From: a virus
Length of the DNA stretch: 48,402 bases
Direction: 5' to 3' (one strand)
Virus record (IMG/VR): IMGVR_UViG_3300045988_077050
Location: 1 to 48,402 of that record
Under the pieces are notes generated by a model that did no database searches, was not told the DNA's origin, and saw nothing but the letters and a program-made list of their open reading frames with translations. Position numbers and translations under genes: made by a program. Of this stretch, positions 1 to 48,402 are shown piece after piece; the first letter of the stretch is position 1, and every line of letters begins with the position of its first letter.

Positions 1-55
1 GTGTTACAACTTGTGAATCGGTTAGAAAAGCAGGGATATCGTGTAAATCTCAATG
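1..55. repeat. 55-bp terminal overlap, identical to 48348..48402; circular-assembly signature, so the contig is a closed 48,347-bp genome
   Basis: Read directly: bases 1-55 (gtgttacaacttgtgaatcggttagaaaagcagggatatcgtgtaaatctcaatg) recur exactly as the last 55 bases. Confidence 0.95.
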
Positions 56-6802: not shown

Positions 6803-6831
6803 TTGACAAGAAATGCAAAGTATGATACTAT
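6803..6831 (+). promoter_or_regulatory. sigma-A type promoter with extended -10
   Basis: TTGACA 6803-08, 17-nt spacer, TGaTACTAT ending at 6831. Confidence 0.6.
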
Positions 6832-6837
6832 AGAAGA

Positions 6838-7070
6838 AACAAAAGGAGTTGTGCTAGGATTGGTACAAATAAGTGGTAGCCAGTATGAATGGAAATGCCT
6901 GCCGATAAAAAAGAAAAAATACACATTATTATTACAAGCTTAGTTGCGCATTCACCTATCGTGTGCCTACAGGTTTTTTGTTGTTCCATGATTACTCCTC
7001 AAAAGAAAAAAAAAGAAAACAATAATAATGTGTGTTTTATGTAGGGCAAGGAATTTTCCTTGCCTTATTA
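6838..7070 (+). ncRNA. candidate structured non-coding transcript, or a cos/pac region
   Basis: About 230 nt between promoter 6803 and terminator 7045 with no credible ORF. An 18-bp interrupted inverted repeat (6916-6933 / 7021-7038) and several A-tracts. Confidence 0.3.
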
Positions 7071-7075
7071 TATAT
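7045..7075 (+). terminator. hairpin terminator
   Basis: ggcaagga / tccttgcc (7045-7064), followed by a T/A-rich stretch. Confidence 0.55.
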
Positions 7076-7113
7076 AAAAAACAAAATAATAAAACAGGAG
7101 GAAAAACAAGCAT

Positions 7114-7620
7114 ATGGGAAGAAGAAAAGGGAGAGAAGTAAAAGAAGCAAGTAATTTAATTCCGCTTAGTGAGCGGTCAAAGGAAGAAAGACAAAGGATT
7201 GCGAAAATGGGTGTGGAAGCAAGAAGGAAGAAGAAAGAACAGAACATGGCATTACAGAATTGTATGCGTCAGTTATTGGAAATGAAAACAAACAGTGATA
7301 AAAAGAAACAAATATTGCGTTCGTTTGGTTTTACAGATGAGGAATTAACAAACCGCTCCTTATTAATGGTGGCATTGTTTCAAAAAGGTTTGACAGGTGA
7401 TGTGTCTGCAATCAAAGAAATTACAAACATGATGGATAAGTTAGATATGTTCAAGAACACAGGAAAGATTACAAGTAACGTAACAATTAACCTAGTAGCA
7501 ACTGGGGAAAGCTACCAACCGAATGAAGCAGATGAGCAGGAAATCTGGAATGTGGAAAACGAAAGTGATTGGATGAATGAAGAGGATGAGGAGTGGGGCA
7601 ATGATATCTATGAGGGATAG
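7114..7620 (+). CDS. terS: putative terminase small subunit-like protein
   Basis: Basic N-terminus (GRRKG...EARRKKK) and LLMVALFQKGLTGDVSAIKEI, a motif I associate with small-terminase-like proteins of Firmicute phages. Acidic tail EEDEEWGNDIYEG. Confidence 0.4.
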   Translation: MGRRKGREVKEASNLIPLSERSKEERQRIAKMGVEARRKKKEQNMALQNCMRQLLEMKTNSDKKKQILRSFGFTDEELTNRSLLMVALFQKGLTGDVSAIKEITNMMDKLDMFKNTGKITSNVTINLVATGESYQPNEADEQEIWNVENESDWMNEEDEEWGNDIYEG

Positions 7621-8580: not shown

Positions 8581-8725
8581 AACAAAGTTAAAAAAGAAAA
8601 TAGGGCGTTATGTAAGAGGATATGCAAAAAGAAATAACATGACAGAAGAACAAGCATTAGAACAAGACATTGTACAAAATGTGATTACATGGATAAATTT
8701 AAGGGAACAGGAGAACAAACAATGA
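8567..8725 (+). CDS. hypothetical small basic protein
   Basis: GGTGGGAG lies before ATG 8567. Confidence 0.4.
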   Translation: MAKSKTKLKKKIGRYVRGYAKRNNMTEEQALEQDIVQNVITWINLREQENKQ

Positions 8726-9090
8726 ACGAATACAAAAATAAAATGTATAAACAGGCAGAACATTTTGGGTTAGAAAATAGAATGTTACAATGTACCGAAG
8801 AATGTGGAGAACTTATTCAAGCGTTAAGCAAGTACAAAAGAACTTTACAGGGAGATAAAACTTGTAAGATGAAAAGAAGCCAAGCTATTAACATGGTGTT
8901 AGAAGAAATTGCAGATGTAGAAATCACCTTAAAACAATTAAAATATCTATTGTGCAAAACAGAAGCAGTAGAACACATAAAGGTAAGAAAAGTTATTCGA
9001 ACAGAAAAAAGAATATTAGAACCAAAGGAACAAGAACAAACACAAGCACAGTATGAACATTTCAAGGATAGATTTTTAAATGTAGAATAG
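8722..9090 (+). CDS. mazG: MazG-like nucleotide pyrophosphohydrolase
   Basis: EECGELIQAL ... LEEIADVEITL, the all-alpha NTP-PPase EExxE/EExxD pattern. Confidence 0.6.
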   Translation: MNEYKNKMYKQAEHFGLENRMLQCTEECGELIQALSKYKRTLQGDKTCKMKRSQAINMVLEEIADVEITLKQLKYLLCKTEAVEHIKVRKVIRTEKRILEPKEQEQTQAQYEHFKDRFLNVE

Positions 9091-9204
9091 AAACAAACAC
9101 AAGCTTGTATTTTGCGTTTTAAGACGTTACAAACAAATGCCCTATAAATATATAGGTAAATAAATAAAAGTATATCAGAGAGCAAGCTAGAGGTATCAGA
9201 AAGG

Positions 9205-9507
9205 ATGGCAACAATGGCAAAGTATAGAAAGAAACCAGTTGAAATTGAAGCGTTCCAATATGATGGAGATTTAAAAGGCTCAGATGGGGAATATTATGTT
9301 CCAGAGTGGGCGGTAAAAGCATTTGAAAACGGAACACTAATGTATACGTCTTTTTCACCGTCACAAATTCCATGTGGTTTATGTGTTAGAACACTAAACG
9401 GTGATAGATATGCACAAGTAGGAGATTACATCATTAAGGACGAAAACGGAGAACTTTATCCGTGTAAGCCAGACATCTTCGAGAAAACATATGAGGTGGT
9501 GGATTAA
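9205..9507 (+). CDS. hypothetical protein (PGDYG-like C-terminal pattern VGDYIIKDENGELYPCKPDIFEKTYE)
   Basis: Motif seen by eye. Confidence 0.5.
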   Translation: MATMAKYRKKPVEIEAFQYDGDLKGSDGEYYVPEWAVKAFENGTLMYTSFSPSQIPCGLCVRTLNGDRYAQVGDYIIKDENGELYPCKPDIFEKTYEVVD

Positions 9508-9530
9508 ATTAGGGTTTAGGAGGAATCTGT

Positions 9531-9686
9531 ATGGATCATCCATGTAAACACTGTGACAAAGCAGATATCGAAAGAAAAACACTTGAAAAATGTGAAAAGC
9601 CATGCAAGCAATATAATAAATGTTGGTATGAATGCGAGAATAAGCTGATAGATATTTTGGTTGGAGGGTTAGAACATATCATTTAA
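9531..9686 (+). CDS. small Cys-rich protein (51 aa)
   Basis: MDHPCKHCDKADIERKTLEKCEKPCKQYNKCWYEC; GGAGG upstream; resembles 6638..6798. Confidence 0.4.
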   Translation: MDHPCKHCDKADIERKTLEKCEKPCKQYNKCWYECENKLIDILVGGLEHII

Positions 9687-9737
9687 AACAAAGAACAAAC
9701 AACGAACATAAGAACATAGAAAGGAGAATCAAAACAA

Positions 9738-10280
9738 ATGGAAAAGAAACAAGAATTAAACATTGTTTATAGAAACATTAAAGAACTAAAACCATATAAG
9801 AAGAACGCAAAGAAGCATCCAAAAGAACAGGTGGAACGAATAGCAAACAGCATTAAAGAGTTTGGGTTTACACAGCCAGTTATTGTAGATAAAAACAATT
9901 GTGTTGTTGCAGGGCATGGAAGAATACTAGGAGCAAAGAAAGCAGGATTAAAACAAGTACCTACTGTTATGTTGGAAGAACTCACAGAAGAACAAATAAA
10001 AGCATACAGGCTAGTGGATAACAAACTGAATGAAAGCGATTGGGATTTTAGTTTGTTGGATGAAGAACTAGGAATACTATCAGACGATATTGATATGGAG
10101 TTGTTTGGATTTGATACAGATATGTCAGATGAAGAATTGGAACGGGCGATAAAAGAAGTAAAGTTTAAAACAAAAGAAAAACACCTTGTCATTGTACCAT
10201 GCAAGAATGAAAAGGAAACAATAAAGGTGCAGAAAGAGATTGAGCAGTTGGGTTACAAGTGTGATATTAAGAATACATAA
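9738..10280 (+). CDS. ParB-like nuclease-domain protein (possible DpdB-like partner of DpdA)
   Basis: ELKPYKKNAKKHP...GFTQPVIVDKNNCVVAGHGRILGAKKAG matches the ParB/Srx N-terminal domain. Its stop overlaps the start of the next gene (TAATG). Confidence 0.7.
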   Translation: MEKKQELNIVYRNIKELKPYKKNAKKHPKEQVERIANSIKEFGFTQPVIVDKNNCVVAGHGRILGAKKAGLKQVPTVMLEELTEEQIKAYRLVDNKLNESDWDFSLLDEELGILSDDIDMELFGFDTDMSDEELERAIKEVKFKTKEKHLVIVPCKNEKETIKVQKEIEQLGYKCDIKNT

Positions 10281-11035
10281 TGGAGTTATATCTGAGTGGA
10301 AGTTATACAAATTCCGAAAGACAACATTTAAGAGATTTTGGTTGCTTGTTTTTGCTAAATACATATTATGATATGAGAACTTGGAATAAACAAAATGTAA
10401 TAGATTTAATAACAATTCCACAGTGTAGTTTTATGTTAGATTCTGGTGCGTTCACATTTATGAACAGCGGAAAGAAAGTGCATTGGAAAACATATGTGGA
10501 TGAATACATAGCATTTATAAACAAATATGATATACAGTATTTTATAGAACTCGACTTATATGGTGTACTGGGAGTTGAAACAACAGAGAAAATAAGAAGG
10601 TATATAGAACACCATACAGGGAAGAAACCTATACCAGTATATCATGGAACTATGCCAGTATCTTATTTTAGAAAGTTATGCCAAGAGTATCCGTATGTTG
10701 CCATATCAGCCACAGGAACATTAGAAAGCAGTAAATGGACACGAAACAAACAGGCATTGAAACAGATTATTAAAATAGGACATAGTTATGGAACAAAATT
10801 ACATGGATTAGGATATAGCAGATTAGAAAACATCAACAAACCGGATGTGCTATTTGATAGTGTTGATTCTACAAGTTGGCTAAGTGGGTGTAGGTTTGGA
10901 ACATGGTATGATTTAAAACATGGGGAATTAAAACAAAAAAATATGGCAGGGTATGGAATAACAAGAGAGAATTTTAATAGACATAATGCGAAAATATGGA
11001 TTGACAAACAAAAAGAATTATATTATAATAAATAA
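10280..11035 (+). CDS. dpdA: DpdA-like DNA-guanine transglycosylase (7-deazaguanine insertion into DNA)
   Basis: FMLDSGAFTF parallels the TGT catalytic DSGGFQ motif. A second Asp-containing segment is FDSVDSTSW. Size and context fit phage DpdA. Confidence 0.6.
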   Translation: MELYLSGSYTNSERQHLRDFGCLFLLNTYYDMRTWNKQNVIDLITIPQCSFMLDSGAFTFMNSGKKVHWKTYVDEYIAFINKYDIQYFIELDLYGVLGVETTEKIRRYIEHHTGKKPIPVYHGTMPVSYFRKLCQEYPYVAISATGTLESSKWTRNKQALKQIIKIGHSYGTKLHGLGYSRLENINKPDVLFDSVDSTSWLSGCRFGTWYDLKHGELKQKNMAGYGITRENFNRHNAKIWIDKQKELYYNK

Positions 11036-11040
11036 AATAT

Positions 11041-11078
11041 TGTTGTATGTAAAAACCAACATTAAAAAACTAAAGGAG
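11041..11078 (+). promoter_or_regulatory. candidate preQ1-I riboswitch aptamer
   Basis: P1 tgttg (11041-45) / caaca (11057-61), an 11-nt loop starting with U and ending with C, and the tail ttAAAAAACTAAaGGAG running into the SD of the yhhQ-like gene. Confidence 0.55.
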
Positions 11079-11086
11079 AAACAAAT

Positions 11087-11695
11087 ATGAAAATTACAAA
11101 GAAACAAAACATTTATTTTATCTTATCAACATTATACTGTTGTATGTTGATAGTTAGTAACATTTTGGCAAACAGAACATTTGAATTATTTAACTTTATG
11201 TTACCATCAGCAGTAATTGTATTTCCGATTGTGTACATCATTAACGATGTTATGACAGAATGTTTCGGAATTAAAAATGCAAGTAAAACAATCATGTTAG
11301 CATTTTCAATCAATTTGTTATGTGTTGTATTTTTTAATATAGCGATACAGTTACCAACAACACAGGACTTTTCAAGTTATAGTATAGTTTTGGGAAATAC
11401 TTTAAAAGCGTTACTTGCATCATTCGTTGCATATTTATCTGGTAGTTTTGTAAATGCAGGAATTATGCATATTATGAAAAACAAAACAGAAAAATATCTT
11501 ATGCTAAGGTGTGTTATATCTACTTTGTTTGGAGAAGGAATTGACGCCCTTATATTTATAAGTGTAATGTTCATTGGAGTGTTGCCAGTTAAAGTAGTAT
11601 CTACTATGATTATCACACAAGCATTATTCAAAACAATATATGAGGTTGTAGTGTATCCTGTTACAAGACGGGTTATAAAACAAATAAACAAATAA
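11087..11695 (+). CDS. yhhQ: queuosine-precursor (preQ0/preQ1) transporter, YhhQ/VUT family
   Basis: Multi-pass membrane protein. VSNILANR..., FPIVYIINDVMTECFG, ASFVAYLSGSFVN and STLFGEGIDALIF align with YhhQ (COG1738) signatures. Confidence 0.8.
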   Translation: MKITKKQNIYFILSTLYCCMLIVSNILANRTFELFNFMLPSAVIVFPIVYIINDVMTECFGIKNASKTIMLAFSINLLCVVFFNIAIQLPTTQDFSSYSIVLGNTLKALLASFVAYLSGSFVNAGIMHIMKNKTEKYLMLRCVISTLFGEGIDALIFISVMFIGVLPVKVVSTMIITQALFKTIYEVVVYPVTRRVIKQINK

Positions 11696-11728
11696 ACATT
11701 AAAATATACAACAATATAATTAATTAAG

Positions 11729-11755
11729 GACAGAACATTGTTTCTGTCTTTTTTA
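11729..11755 (+). terminator. rho-independent terminator
   Basis: gacagaa / ttctgtc, then TTTTTT. Confidence 0.75.
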
Positions 11756-11783: not shown

Positions 11784-11811
11784 TTGACATTTCTATATGC
11801 TATGTTATAAT
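11784..11811 (+). promoter_or_regulatory. sigma-A type promoter with extended -10
   Basis: TTGACA 11784-89, 16-nt spacer, TGtTATAAT ending at 11811. Confidence 0.65.
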
Positions 11812-12882: not shown

Positions 12883-12912
12883 TTGACAAACAAAAATTAA
12901 ATATGGTATAAT
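12883..12912 (+). promoter_or_regulatory. sigma-A type promoter with extended -10 (drives terL)
   Basis: TTGACA 12883-88, 18-nt spacer, TGgTATAAT ending at 12912. Confidence 0.65.
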
Positions 12913-45705: not shown

Positions 45706-46102
45706 ATATTGTAAACCAATGGGATTGCATGTAACATATTTAGATTGTATGGATTGCGAAGATAAAGAGTGTATACAATCCCATAGAAAGGAAGAAGAAA
45801 TGGAAAAAAGATATCTGGATGTAGAACCAGAACAGATTGTATATATTGTTTTGGAATCTAAAAGGGAAGGAAAACAAAACAATATAATTGCAGAATGTAG
45901 ATGTGAAAAAGCGGTAGTGTATAGAATGACCACAGTATATTGTTTTAAAGTATTAAAAATTGTGACAAAAACAAAAACAACCATAAAAGCAGAACTATTA
46001 ATGTGCGAAAATGCAAACATCAATACAGGACACAGAAAAACACCAAACAGGTATCCGGTGTTTACAACAAAAGAAAAATGTTTGGAGTGGATTAAAGGTT
46101 GA
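45698..46102 (+). CDS. hypothetical Cys-rich protein
   Basis: ORF overlaps its neighbour. Confidence 0.5.
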   Translation: MSKYCKPMGLHVTYLDCMDCEDKECIQSHRKEEEMEKRYLDVEPEQIVYIVLESKREGKQNNIIAECRCEKAVVYRMTTVYCFKVLKIVTKTKTTIKAELLMCENANINTGHRKTPNRYPVFTTKEKCLEWIKG

Positions 46103-46103
46103 A

Positions 46104-46889
46104 ATGAAAAAAGAAGAAAATAAAAATTATAAACAAAGATTTATGAATGGATTTAAGATATTAACGCATACAAAGTCACCATATAAAGTTTGGTCTGAAT
46201 TAATGTTGTTATATGCGATTGAAATTGCGAACACAACATTAAGACCATTAAAAGAAAGTAAACCTTTTAAAAGTGTGTGGGAAGAGCGTGAAAAACAATA
46301 TATCGAAACAATAAAAACATACACAAAGAAAGAACAAAAAATAATCTCACAAATGTTCACACTATTAGTGTTAGAATTAGAAGAAAATCCGAACCAAGAT
46401 TTGTTAGGAGAATTGTATATGAAGTTGGGAATCTCAAACAATCGTGCAGGACAGTTCTTCACACCGTACAGTGTATGTGAGTTAATGTCTGGGGTAACAA
46501 TCAACAAGAAACAGTTGGCAAAAGATGTACATAACAAAGGGTATGTGATTATCAATGATTGTGCTTGTGGCGCAGGTGCGACATTAATATCGGCAACAGA
46601 ATATTGCAAGTCCATGTTCAAGAAATTAAATTACCAAGACCATGTAGGGGTAGTTGCACAGGACATTGATATTACTTGTGTACATATGTGTTATATCCAG
46701 TTGTCTTTACATGGGTTGTCTGGATATGTTATACACGGGAATACATTGACAGAACCAGAAGTAACAGATTTGCACAGAATCTGGTTTACACCAATCTATT
46801 TTAGTGATGTGTGGACAATGCGAAGGTTGTTCCATGGACAAGACATTTTAGGCAGAGAAAGGAAACAAAAGGAAAATGAAAAAGCATAA
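46104..46889 (+). CDS. truncated HsdM-like (N6_Mtase-like) SAM-binding protein lacking a canonical catalytic motif
   Basis: GQFFTPYSVCELM (motif X) and VIINDCACGAGATL (motif I) resemble gamma-class N6-adenine methylases. TPIY stands where NPPF/Y is expected, and the protein ends about 30 aa later. Confidence 0.55.
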   Translation: MKKEENKNYKQRFMNGFKILTHTKSPYKVWSELMLLYAIEIANTTLRPLKESKPFKSVWEEREKQYIETIKTYTKKEQKIISQMFTLLVLELEENPNQDLLGELYMKLGISNNRAGQFFTPYSVCELMSGVTINKKQLAKDVHNKGYVIINDCACGAGATLISATEYCKSMFKKLNYQDHVGVVAQDIDITCVHMCYIQLSLHGLSGYVIHGNTLTEPEVTDLHRIWFTPIYFSDVWTMRRLFHGQDILGRERKQKENEKA

Positions 46890-47903: not shown

Positions 47904-48402
47904 ATGAAAAAGAAACAACAAGGAAATGTTTATGTTACAGAGTTTGAAACCATCACAGAATTATCACATTTTATCGAAACAAATGAACCGTATGAAAACT
48001 TTTTAAACAAGAAAACTGGTTGTGACAGTATAAGCGGTGATTATACATTCACTCAAACAAACAATTTTGAAGAAGCAAAAGATTTGTTATTGCATGGGTG
48101 GGAACATGGCACAAAGGAAATCAAAAGACAAATAGATGTGAAACAAACTGGAATTTCCACAAAACAAAAGAACGTTTATGATGTGGTAGGATATCAATGT
48201 TCTGTTCCAAGATATTTACAGGGAATCCCAACAAACATGATAAATAACAAACCTGTTCCACAGAAAAACAAAGTCATAACCATTAACAAAATGGCTTGTT
48301 ATAGTTATAATGTTGATAGGAAAACAATCATAAAAGAAAGTGTGAAAGTGTTACAACTTGTGAATCGGTTAGAAAAGCAGGGATATCGTGTAAATCTCAA
48401 TG
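47904..48402 (+). CDS. 5' part of the wrap-around gene (continues through 1..357; 266 aa once the overlap is collapsed). Hypothetical; possibly a MIDAS-less vWA/CobT-like partner of the downstream AAA+ ATPase
   Basis: ATG 47904 follows GGAG at 47891-94. The frame runs off the contig end and is continuous with ORF 1..357 through the overlap. Confidence 0.7.
   Translation, partial: MKKKQQGNVYVTEFETITELSHFIETNEPYENFLNKKTGCDSISGDYTFTQTNNFEEAKDLLLHGWEHGTKEIKRQIDVKQTGISTKQKNVYDVVGYQCSVPRYLQGIPTNMINNKPVPQKNKVITINKMACYSYNVDRKTIIKESVKVLQLVNRLEKQGYRVNLN
48348..48402. repeat. Second copy of the 55-bp terminal overlap
   Basis: Identical to 1..55. Confidence 0.95.

Follow-up and report, generated by a model that had tools for sequence, protein, structure and literature searches.

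Background

Modification of phage DNA with 7-deazaguanines is an established strategy against host restriction, and DpdA, its signature enzyme, is treated as acting alone. The phage genome analyzed in this work (IMG/VR record IMGVR_UViG_3300045988_077050, positions 1 to 48,402; this whole stretch of 48,402 nt is called the window below) raises the question whether such a picture is complete. Its dpdA-like gene overlaps the end of a gene for a small protein with a ParB N-terminal domain, is followed by a gene for an importer of the YhhQ family, and is not accompanied by genes for the synthesis of preQ0 (7-cyano-7-deazaguanine). Does the ParB-like protein belong to the modification system, and where does the phage take the modified base from?

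Parts of the background are already known. Phage DpdA systems have been described, phages encoding YhhQ and phages with DpdA alone were recorded by Hutinet 2019 (PMC6884629), and a gene of phage CAjan is annotated as a 'putative preQ0 transporter'. In bacteria the activity of DpdA requires DpdB, a ParB-fold ATPase (PMC10164549). ParBc domains are often associated with phage DNA methyltransferases and with CmoX, an association which is unexplained (PMC12783734), and a single sentence published in 2019 suggests that ORF1 of a cluster B mycobacteriophage, an ORF belonging to the ParB superfamily, 'could encode a dpdB homolog' (PMC6392294). In the literature searched we found no description of a near-obligate, coupled ParB-DpdA cassette across a large clade, of the identity of this ParB as a methyltransferase-type module rather than DpdB, or of an interchangeable precursor supply.

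In this work we show that a large, mostly uncultured clade of DpdA is hardly ever found without a gene for a ParB N-domain protein translationally coupled to it, and that similar pairings with more distant DpdAs exist in actinophages. This near-constant company points to an overlooked partner protein of DpdA. The pairing bears on the way in which DpdA engages duplex DNA, on the role of ParB modules found on phage DNA-modifying enzymes and on the DpdA subfamilies that are inactive alone, and the import-only form present in the window links the DNA armour of phages to the exchange of queuosine precursors in the microbiome. We read the ParB-DpdA-YhhQ cassette (9738-11695), with a probability of roughly 0.6, as a system for the post-replicative exchange of guanine for preQ0 which uses an imported precursor and the ParB-like protein as an accessory factor.

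Results and discussion

A ParB-like gene is the constant neighbour of dpdA

The cassette comprises three genes of the plus strand, encoding a ParB N-domain protein of 180 aa (9738-10280), a DpdA-family DNA-guanine transglycosylase of 251 aa (10280-11035) and a YhhQ-type importer of 202 aa (11087-11695). The open reading frames (ORFs) confirm the positions given to these genes, and to a MazG-like gene upstream, by the first-pass annotation, which had been made from the letters of the window. As that annotation had also noted, the stop codon of the ParB gene and the start codon of dpdA overlap in the sequence TAATG (10278-10282, plus strand), an arrangement of translational coupling that can be read directly from the sequence.

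Conservation of this arrangement was followed in a viral set of 83 loci and in 66 loci from bacterial genomes and metagenome-assembled genomes. The viral set consists of the window, two phage records and 80 viral contigs with DpdA relatives, the latter annotated with hidden Markov models (HMMs) for which the window, a faecal contig and the Fusobacterium phage phiFN37 were the starting points of an iterative build. A locus was considered assessable if it extends 500 nt or more upstream of dpdA. A ParB gene lies directly upstream of the dpdA of this clade, on the same strand, in all 77 assessable viral loci and in 57 of the 62 assessable bacterial ones (134/139 combined), the commonest junction being a 4-nt overlap (ATGA). 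The viral loci form 24 clusters below 60% DpdA identity, one of which (L003) falls outside the 77, and the bacterial set covers Oscillospiraceae, Faecalibacterium, Prevotella, Muribaculaceae, Veillonella, Staphylococcus, Enterococcus, Peptoniphilus and others.

The pairing is also seen when approached in other ways. The ParB gene still adjoins dpdA at loci where queD, queE and folE have moved upstream (L019, L041, L132), and in the reverse check a DpdA of the clade was encoded directly downstream of the ParB gene in 5/5 sampled members of the ParB family. Compared with a close relative (L085), the ParB-like protein is the best conserved product of the region (94.4% identity), above DpdA (82.8%), the terminase TerL (72.0%) and YhhQ (30.8%). 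The ParB gene is thus a real and conserved partner of dpdA.

An arrangement of another kind was noticed in mycobacteriophage Funsized, the gp1 of which (L091, 1-1299) has a ParB-like N-terminus (hhalign 5e-6, HMM 8e-10) fused to DUF6610; another DpdA, of the ordinary sort, is encoded two genes downstream of it. DUF6610 has been equated with DpdA4, described as specific to archaeal viruses, by Hutinet 2023 (PMC10516641). The link of DUF6610 to DpdA4 is taken from that paper; when the profile of the DpdA clade was compared by hhalign with the DUF6610 half of gp1, the E-value was no better than 0.018 and the probability 2.6%. A protein in BFVD (A0A6J5RUN9, 'ParB/Sulfiredoxin', 424 aa) may belong to this type too.

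The dpdA product is a minimal phage DpdA

The assignment of the 10280-11035 product was based on phrog_887, a HMM of the clade, conserved residues and a structure model. The protein matches phrog_887 ('queuine tRNA-ribosyltransferase') at 1.1e-41, and the clade HMM finds annotated phage DpdAs with E-values between 1e-15 and 1e-34, including those of Sonali (1e-24), phage 7-11 (1e-22) and CAjan (gp35; 4.1e-20, 62 bits; direct phmmer 1.3e-8), the last of which has been validated through deletion (PMC6884629). The AlphaFold model, with a mean predicted local distance difference test score (pLDDT) of 92.7, is a TIM barrel. Its top Foldseek matches in BFVD, down to an E-value of 5.5e-18, are phage queuine tRNA-ribosyltransferases of Sonali, Mufasa8, Megan and mycobacteriophages, with nt-1 DpdA2 (1e-4) and phiST DpdA3 (3e-3) lower down the list; the position of the window protein relative to DpdA2, DpdA3 and DpdA4 is read from Foldseek E-values only. 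A search of PDB chain sequences with the clade profile gave spurious matches to Homer EVH1 and no tRNA-guanine transglycosylase (TGT) or DpdA, so sequence alone does not reach the solved structures.

The DSGAF motif of TGT type, pointed out in the first-pass annotation, is present as residues D54-F58 (10439-10453, plus strand) and aligns with the DpdAs of CAjan, HD01, Sonali and 7-11. A second motif, FDSVDSTSW, contains D196 (10865-10867, plus strand), the predicted catalytic nucleophile. Residues D54, F58, D92, H122, L177 and D196 are invariant in the family alignment of 60 sequences, and D54, H122, H175-G176 and D196 align across the DpdAs of CAjan, HD01, Sonali, Funsized and 7-11. Mapping on the bacterial enzyme was based on the NCBIfam DpdA alignment (residues 111-201 to model positions 169-260), the offset of which places D196 at model position ~256 and H122 at ~181, and on the spacing of DSGxF. 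By this mapping the six invariant residues would correspond to Asp95, Phe99, Asp130, His181, Leu236 and Asp256 of bacterial DpdA, among which Asp95 serves as the general acid/base and Asp256 as the nucleophile (PMC10164549); F58 would take the place of Phe99, the residue of base stacking.

Two other families were considered and rejected. The equivalog model of bacterial DpdA (NF041059), which has ~406 positions against the 251 aa of the window protein, gave 21.9 bits (cut-off 200) over residues 111-201 only, and the PADLOC DpdA model matched the same residues weakly (19.6 bits). As for tRNA-guanine transglycosylase, the protein had no Pfam match at E ≤0.01, PF01702 included, and the four cysteines are scattered, with no CxCxxC. 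The protein is a minimal TIM barrel devoid of the zinc-binding or Ins8 subdomains of TGT and bacterial DpdA. What the first-pass annotation had taken for a DpdA is therefore a member of the phage DpdA family and not an unrelated TIM barrel, a TGT or the bacterial equivalog, as indicated by the match to CAjan DpdA, the invariant catalytic residues, the phage DpdAs found in BFVD and the company of queC, queD, queE and folE at 65/83 related viral loci.

With 507 clusters at 50% identity (E ≤1e-30) the clade is a large one, and its hosts include gut Firmicutes, Bacteroidota, Veillonella, Staphylococcus and others. A precomputed Pfam domain on the DpdA part was found in 0/120 of the homologues listed, and bacterial genomes contained nothing closer than 45% identity. 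In two gene calls, P0450 (465 aa) and P0041 (298 aa), a DpdA part and a Vut_1 (YhhQ) part occur together; these are either real fusions or read-through.

The partner resembles the ParB module of phage DNA methyltransferases

The 9738-10280 product was recognized by PF02195 (ParB_N; 39.5 bits, cut-off 26.3), by phrog_620 (8.6e-52) and by its fold. It is also matched over residues 2-172 by phrog_498, a family of ParB-methyltransferase fusions (3.2e-43), and by the N-terminus of the PADLOC model MTase_II (3.1e-26). With the profile of the ParB family, 7bnk and 6sdk, both CTPase domains of ParB, are found at 7.9e-14, and the structure model (pLDDT 81.5) has 6sdk (1.6e-6), 7bnk, Noc and KorB as its top Foldseek hits, the nearest structures being those of CDP- or CTP-bound ParB. 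In the protein a ParB/Srx fold of the nucleotide-binding type is followed by a helical extension with 'DN...WD...GF' and then by an acidic linker, and a small tail forms the C-terminus. Among relatives the helical stretch after the ParB N-domain is conserved (WD...L...WGF), and the tail is variable, in many of them with a CPxCG zinc ribbon.

Each of the three motifs of the ParB nucleotide site has a conserved counterpart here (N23-x-K/R, G59-x-x-R62 and D-N95). The second of them, G59-H-G-R62 (9912-9923, plus strand), is the counterpart of the GxxR nucleotide-binding motif of ParB and aligns with GERR of the Bacillus subtilis and Myxococcus xanthus proteins; N23 is encoded at 9804-9806 (plus strand). 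Residues N23, G59, R62 and N95 are all invariant in a set of 46 ParB sequences, and among 31 diverse partner ParBs N23, G59 and N95 are invariant with R62 retained in at least 90%.

The first-pass annotation had proposed this protein as a minimal phage analogue of DpdB. The part of that proposal which concerns partnership with DpdA holds at 134/139 loci; homology to the DpdB family does not. No DpdB or DndB model of NCBIfam, Pfam or PADLOC matched the protein, its motif reads AGHGR and not DGQQR as in DpdB, its structural neighbours are canonical ParBs, and SspE is absent among the 50 structural matches listed. Identity as a partition ParB was likewise rejected (TIGR00180: 41.8 bits against a cut-off of 58.45, residues 14-98 only, no helix-turn-helix). 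By its profiles and predicted fold, the protein is a canonical ParB module of the kind also fused to phage DNA methyltransferases, and an analogue of DpdB at most.

Precursor supply is the exchangeable part of the cassette

Downstream of dpdA, as the first-pass annotation had recognized, lies a gene for a YhhQ/QPTR (COG1738) importer of 7-deazaguanine precursors (11087-11695, plus strand), which passes the cut-offs of both PF02592 (Vut_1; 131.9 bits, cut-off 27.2, 3.2e-38) and TIGR00697 ('queuosine precursor transporter'; 97.8 bits, cut-off 50.95). Orthology to E. coli YhhQ in the narrow sense was rejected (NF008406: 45.9 bits, cut-off 252). The E. coli member of the family transports preQ0 and preQ1 (PMC5372724). 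The start codon at 11087 is preceded by the ribosome-binding site AAAGGAG, and a sigma-70-type consensus (TTGACA-17 nt-TATAAT, a 12/12 match; 11001-11029, plus strand), situated inside dpdA near its 3′ end and 58 nt ahead of yhhQ, is a possible promoter of its own. A terminator-like hairpin with a stem of 10 pairs followed by TTTATTTATT (11726-11751, plus strand) closes the module. Promoter and terminator are both matches to a consensus only. Three perfect 12/12 sigma-70 sites with spacers of 16-18 nt occur within 2 kb, before yhhQ (11001-11029), after its terminator (11784-11811) and before terL (12883-12912); the total number of promoter-like sites does not exceed the shuffled expectation, and perfect matches are unusual.

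The first and last 55 nt of the window (1-55 and 48348-48402) are identical, which indicates that the assembly closed into a circle, its overlap still being present, and that the phage genome is complete; claims of genome-wide absence can therefore be tested. The first-pass annotation had reported no folE, queD, queE or queC in this DNA, and we reached the same result: phmmer searches of all six reading frames with phage QueC, QueD, QueE and FolE gave a best E-value of 0.24, and Pfam scans of the 10 ORFs around the module and of 27 and 29 further ones contained no QueC, PTPS, radical-SAM, GTP cyclohydrolase I or QueF. The four synthesis genes are absent from the entire genome.

Across the clade the supply of precursor is a part that can be swapped between QueC-D-E with FolE, YhhQ alone, or none. 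QueD/E/FolE, usually with QueC, stand beside ParB-DpdA in 65/83 viral and 20/66 genome loci, and together with YhhQ in 1/83 and 2/66; linkage of queC, queD, queE and folE to DpdA in the genome set amounts to 22/66 loci. YhhQ is the sole supply gene in 10/83 viral loci, with QueC plus YhhQ in 2/83 more, and in the genome set the two types counted together make 27/66. No supply gene was present in the fetched flanks of 5/83 viral loci (one of which, L033, is cut downstream) and 17/66 genome loci. Gut prophages frequently have the import-only form. Because the YhhQ-only type appears in at least six separate DpdA clusters of the viral set, the transporter must have been acquired repeatedly and independently, and its identity of 30.8% to the L085 counterpart, next to 94.4% for ParB, shows that it is readily swapped.

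QueF or an amidotransferase was not found as a conserved neighbour of the clade DpdA, from which it follows that the usual end product of the clade is preQ0. QueC plus YhhQ with no QueD, QueE or FolE in the fetched flanks was seen at L040, L045, L098, L105, L108, L129, L131 and L146, which hints at import of 7-carboxy-7-deazaguanine (CDG) or another QueC substrate and its conversion to preQ0. Between the window and L085 (3528-4163) yhhQ has been replaced by a distant homologue with the neighbouring genes kept, and in another close relative, L084 (3658-4293), it is split into ORFs of 73 and 132 aa, by transporter decay or an assembly error.

Relation to known modification systems

The closest layouts among characterized phages are those of Mycobacterium phage Rosebush (cluster B) and Arthrobacter phage Sonali, in which, as in the window, a ParB-like gene overlaps dpdA and supply genes follow; in those two phages the overlap is of 4 nt and the terminase comes last. 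In Rosebush the gene for gp1 (ParB-like; 1.6e-11 with the HMM of the partner ParBs) overlaps that for gp2 (DpdA), followed by QueC, D, E, FolE and TerL, and in Sonali gp86 (ParB) and gp87 (DpdA) are followed by QueC, D, E and FolE. Rosebush DNA contains ~96,500 dPreQ0 (the deoxynucleoside of preQ0) per million nucleotides (PMC6884629). Both phages make preQ0 through QueC, D, E and FolE, whereas the window phage has a transporter only, and their DpdAs are distant from that of the window (59 bits by phmmer for Sonali gp87, 16 bits with the clade HMM for Rosebush gp2).

The DpdA1 enzymes of Queuovirinae (9g, CAjan) represent the same principle, in which phage DpdA swaps G for preQ0 or G+ (archaeosine) after replication as a measure against restriction (PMC6884629, PMC7544227), and the annotated transporter of CAjan adds to the likeness. 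They differ from the window system in having no ParB partner, a DpdA of 306 aa, a full synthesis pathway and a location in the replication module, not on the terminase side. Phages 7-11 and Orion resemble the window phage in having DpdA and no preQ0 synthesis genes and presumably depend on host or external precursor (PMC6884629), but in the 6.5-kb stretch examined 7-11 has neither ParB beside dpdA nor a transporter.

The bacterial Dpd system of Salmonella Montevideo shares with the window a TGT-like transglycosylase for the insertion of preQ0, the catalytic residues and a ParB-fold NTPase partner, which it needs (PMC10164549). In contrast to the phage protein of 180 aa, DpdB is of the DndB/SspE type, carries a DGQQR motif, has a helical domain at its C-terminus and is of about double the mass; the window DpdA, in turn, is without the large Ins8 insertion and does not belong to a restriction system. 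Another likeness is that to the ParB (PF02195) modules fused or adjacent to phage DNA methyltransferases and CmoX, nearly the full length of the window protein corresponding to the N-terminal module of the fusions. Here the client differs, being a base-exchanging transglycosylase where the others are methyl- or carboxymethyl-transferases, and ParB is a separate, coupled polypeptide.

Proposed mechanism

We propose that the cassette replaces a fraction of guanines in the double-stranded phage DNA with a 7-deazaguanine after replication. YhhQ, to judge from its family, would import the free base through the host membrane, possibly being expressed from its own promoter. The base would most likely be preQ0, since the supply operons of relatives end at QueC, whose product is preQ0, with no QueF or amidotransferase; preQ0 made by the host could add to the pool. 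DpdA, as its conserved catalytic residues suggest, would flip out a guanine, Asp196 would displace it to give a covalent enzyme-DNA intermediate, and Asp54 would then activate the replacement base so that the exchange can be completed, a course shared with bacterial DpdA and TGT.

The ParB-like protein, produced in amounts coupled to those of DpdA, would act as an accessory subunit in physical contact with the enzyme, a role suggested by the genomic pattern. It would most likely be a dimerising module, gated by a nucleotide, that loads or holds a very small and domain-poor DpdA on duplex DNA. Such a role would parallel that of the ATPase DpdB, with a different origin, in the canonical ParB module of phage methyltransferases. 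The predicted outcome is protection from restriction and other DNA-targeting defences, to a degree set by the availability of precursor.

A wider generalization, which we put forward as a tentative and rather doubtful one, is that small ParB N-domain proteins are general nucleotide-gated adaptors that load different phage DNA-modifying enzymes (methyltransferases, CmoX and DpdA transglycosylases) on DNA, with the DpdA clade having one as an obligate subunit. If it were true, an adaptor would explain how a TIM barrel of 250 residues with no DNA-binding domain acts on duplex DNA, and might explain why some phage DpdA subfamilies fail in heterologous tests when expressed alone. As a corollary, the armour of salvage-type phages would depend on the 7-deazaguanine bases circulating in the gut community.

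Several observations weigh against the proposed system or parts of it. The DpdA of 9g/CAjan type works in E. coli without a ParB partner (PMC6884629), and no ParB gene is found next to dpdA in CAjan, HD01, 7-11, SfI, BCD7 and GiJojo. Within the clade at least two genome loci (L105, L107) have no ParB; L105, inspected directly, is a genuine exception with an ORF of 304 aa (RecT-like by eye), a gap and then DpdA. The model of the ParB-like protein contains no recognisable DNA-binding helix-turn-helix, its C-terminal third is of low confidence, and in one subclade (L002, L037) GNGV replaces the arginine of GxxR, so that nucleotide binding may not be universal among partner ParBs. DNA of phage 7-11 contains ~50 dPreQ0 per million nucleotides and that of Orion none (PMC6884629). 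Finally, Foldseek against PDB did not separate TGT from PdxJ, TrpA and ribulose-phosphate epimerase, which had similar E-values, although TGT chains gave the highest query TM-scores (0.62-0.65); the PDB fold search alone left DpdA and other TIM barrels undecided, and it was the BFVD and profile matches to validated DpdAs that decided.

The BCD7 and GiJojo enzymes just mentioned are long DpdAs (gp21, L089 2812-5085, 757 aa; gp181, L092 2501-4006, 501 aa), whose extensions may be built-in accessory domains. A ParB-like character of their C-terminal extensions was considered and no resemblance was found; BCD7 gp21 has no Pfam match anywhere along the protein.

Alternative explanations

A real module could insert another base, such as preQ1, queuine, CDG or a further 7-deazaguanine of the gut, with a DpdA of matching specificity. 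The substrates of COG1738 transporters do vary, the E. coli member taking preQ0 and preQ1, that of Chlamydia queuine and that of Bartonella both (PMC5372724, PMC11570991), phage DpdAs insert several different bases (PMC10516641), yhhQ is readily swapped, and loci with QueC and YhhQ but neither QueD nor QueE hint at CDG salvage. Against these stand the supply operon of the clade, which in most loci ends at QueC and preQ0 with no QueF, and Rosebush, with a like layout and dPreQ0 in its DNA (PMC6884629). We regard another base as unlikely, though a serious competitor.

The genes might also be intact and the phage DNA unmodified or modified in traces, the level being set by precursor supply, with little protection as a result. 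The low or nil modification of the DpdA-only phages 7-11 and Orion (PMC6884629) fits such a situation, as do the split yhhQ of L084 and the 5 viral and 17 genome loci whose fetched flanks contain no supply gene. The strict conservation of all catalytic residues and the constraint on ParB, stronger than on the terminase, speak against it, and the independent gain of a transporter in at least six lineages indicates that selection acts on precursor supply itself. Modification too sparse to protect is, in our opinion, an improbable outcome that should nevertheless be kept in view.

Less probable still is that ParB has a job of its own (help in packaging, a nuclease, partition or regulation) and adjoins dpdA merely as a member of a conserved block before the terminase, DpdA working alone as in 9g and CAjan. 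The activity of phage DpdA1 without a partner (PMC6884629), the few DpdA loci with no ParB, the frequent position of the cassette just before terS and terL, and the abundance of ParB-like genes in phages, in many contexts (12 kb of phiFN37 contain three, one adjoining a PAPS reductase gene), are all compatible with it. Mere membership in such a block, however, does not fit a pairing kept in 134/139 loci of very divergent lineages and hosts, mostly with overlapping codons, which outlasts the rearrangement of que genes at L019, L041 and L132. In most loci four supply genes lie between ParB and the terminase, the ParB-family members sampled all precede DpdA (5/5), and a ParB-DUF6610 fusion exists.

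The remaining explanation, that enzyme and transporter act on host tRNA or the pool of queuosine precursors and tune translation instead of modifying phage DNA, recalls the descent of the family from tRNA-guanine transglycosylases and the proposal by Hutinet 2019 that phages with preQ0 genes and no DpdA boost Q precursors (PMC6884629), but is very improbable given a protein with no zinc and C-terminal subdomain of TGT and no PF01702 match, the action on DNA of every DpdA tested (PMC6884629, PMC10516641) and a partner of the DNA-associated ParB type, a module of which DNA methyltransferases make use as well.

Neighbouring genes and genome context

The first-pass annotation had placed a MazG-like NTP pyrophosphohydrolase gene at the head of the island, with a start at 8722. 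The gene is present at 8689-9090 (plus strand), 8722 being an internal ATG, and is recognized by PHROG only (phrog_2245, 'nucleoside triphosphate pyrophosphohydrolase', 4.4e-21; phrog_4856, 1.2e-6), with no match in Pfam, NCBIfam, PADLOC or PDB sequences. Its membership in the module could not be upheld: a MazG-like gene is found near DpdA only in the window, L015, L103 and L144 (~4/150 loci), and close relatives carry other genes at this position. MazG is a neighbour and not a component of the module. Two small ORFs between the MazG-like and ParB genes (9205-9507 and 9531-9686), which encode a phrog_419 family protein, also found upstream of ParB in L006, and a cysteine-rich peptide of 51 aa, are not conserved with the module either.

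The locus of phiFN37 (L001), a cultivable relative, is 12.6 kb in length, with three ParB-like genes; it shares the ParB-DpdA-YhhQ layout of the window and differs from it in further genes. Between dpdA and yhhQ it has a gene (6805-7239) for a DUF6884 protein (6e-41), weakly matched by PF03883 (YaaA/DUF328, the DpdC family; 3.4e-5), which may convert dPreQ0 to dADG (2′-deoxy-7-amido-7-deazaguanosine) and has no counterpart in the window. A gene similar to that of reductases of 3′-phosphoadenosine-5′-phosphosulfate (PAPS) is followed there directly by a ParB-like gene (772-2560), forming an IbrA/IbrB-like pair.

The window has a G+C content of ~33% and nearly all of its genes on the plus strand. 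A protein identical to its ParB is encoded on a contig of 46.8 kb from, by the record name, a human gut metagenome, and no record was found with the exact sequence of its DpdA. It encodes siphovirus structural and lysis functions (terminase, capsid protein E, tape measure, Amidase_3, an r1t-type holin) and a set of replication genes (Pol III alpha with a PHP domain, RecA, a DnaG-type primase, RNase H and an N6 DNA methyltransferase). The methyltransferase of 292 aa (46011-46889; N6_Mtase, PF02384, 1.3e-12) is a second, independent DNA-modification gene of the same genome.

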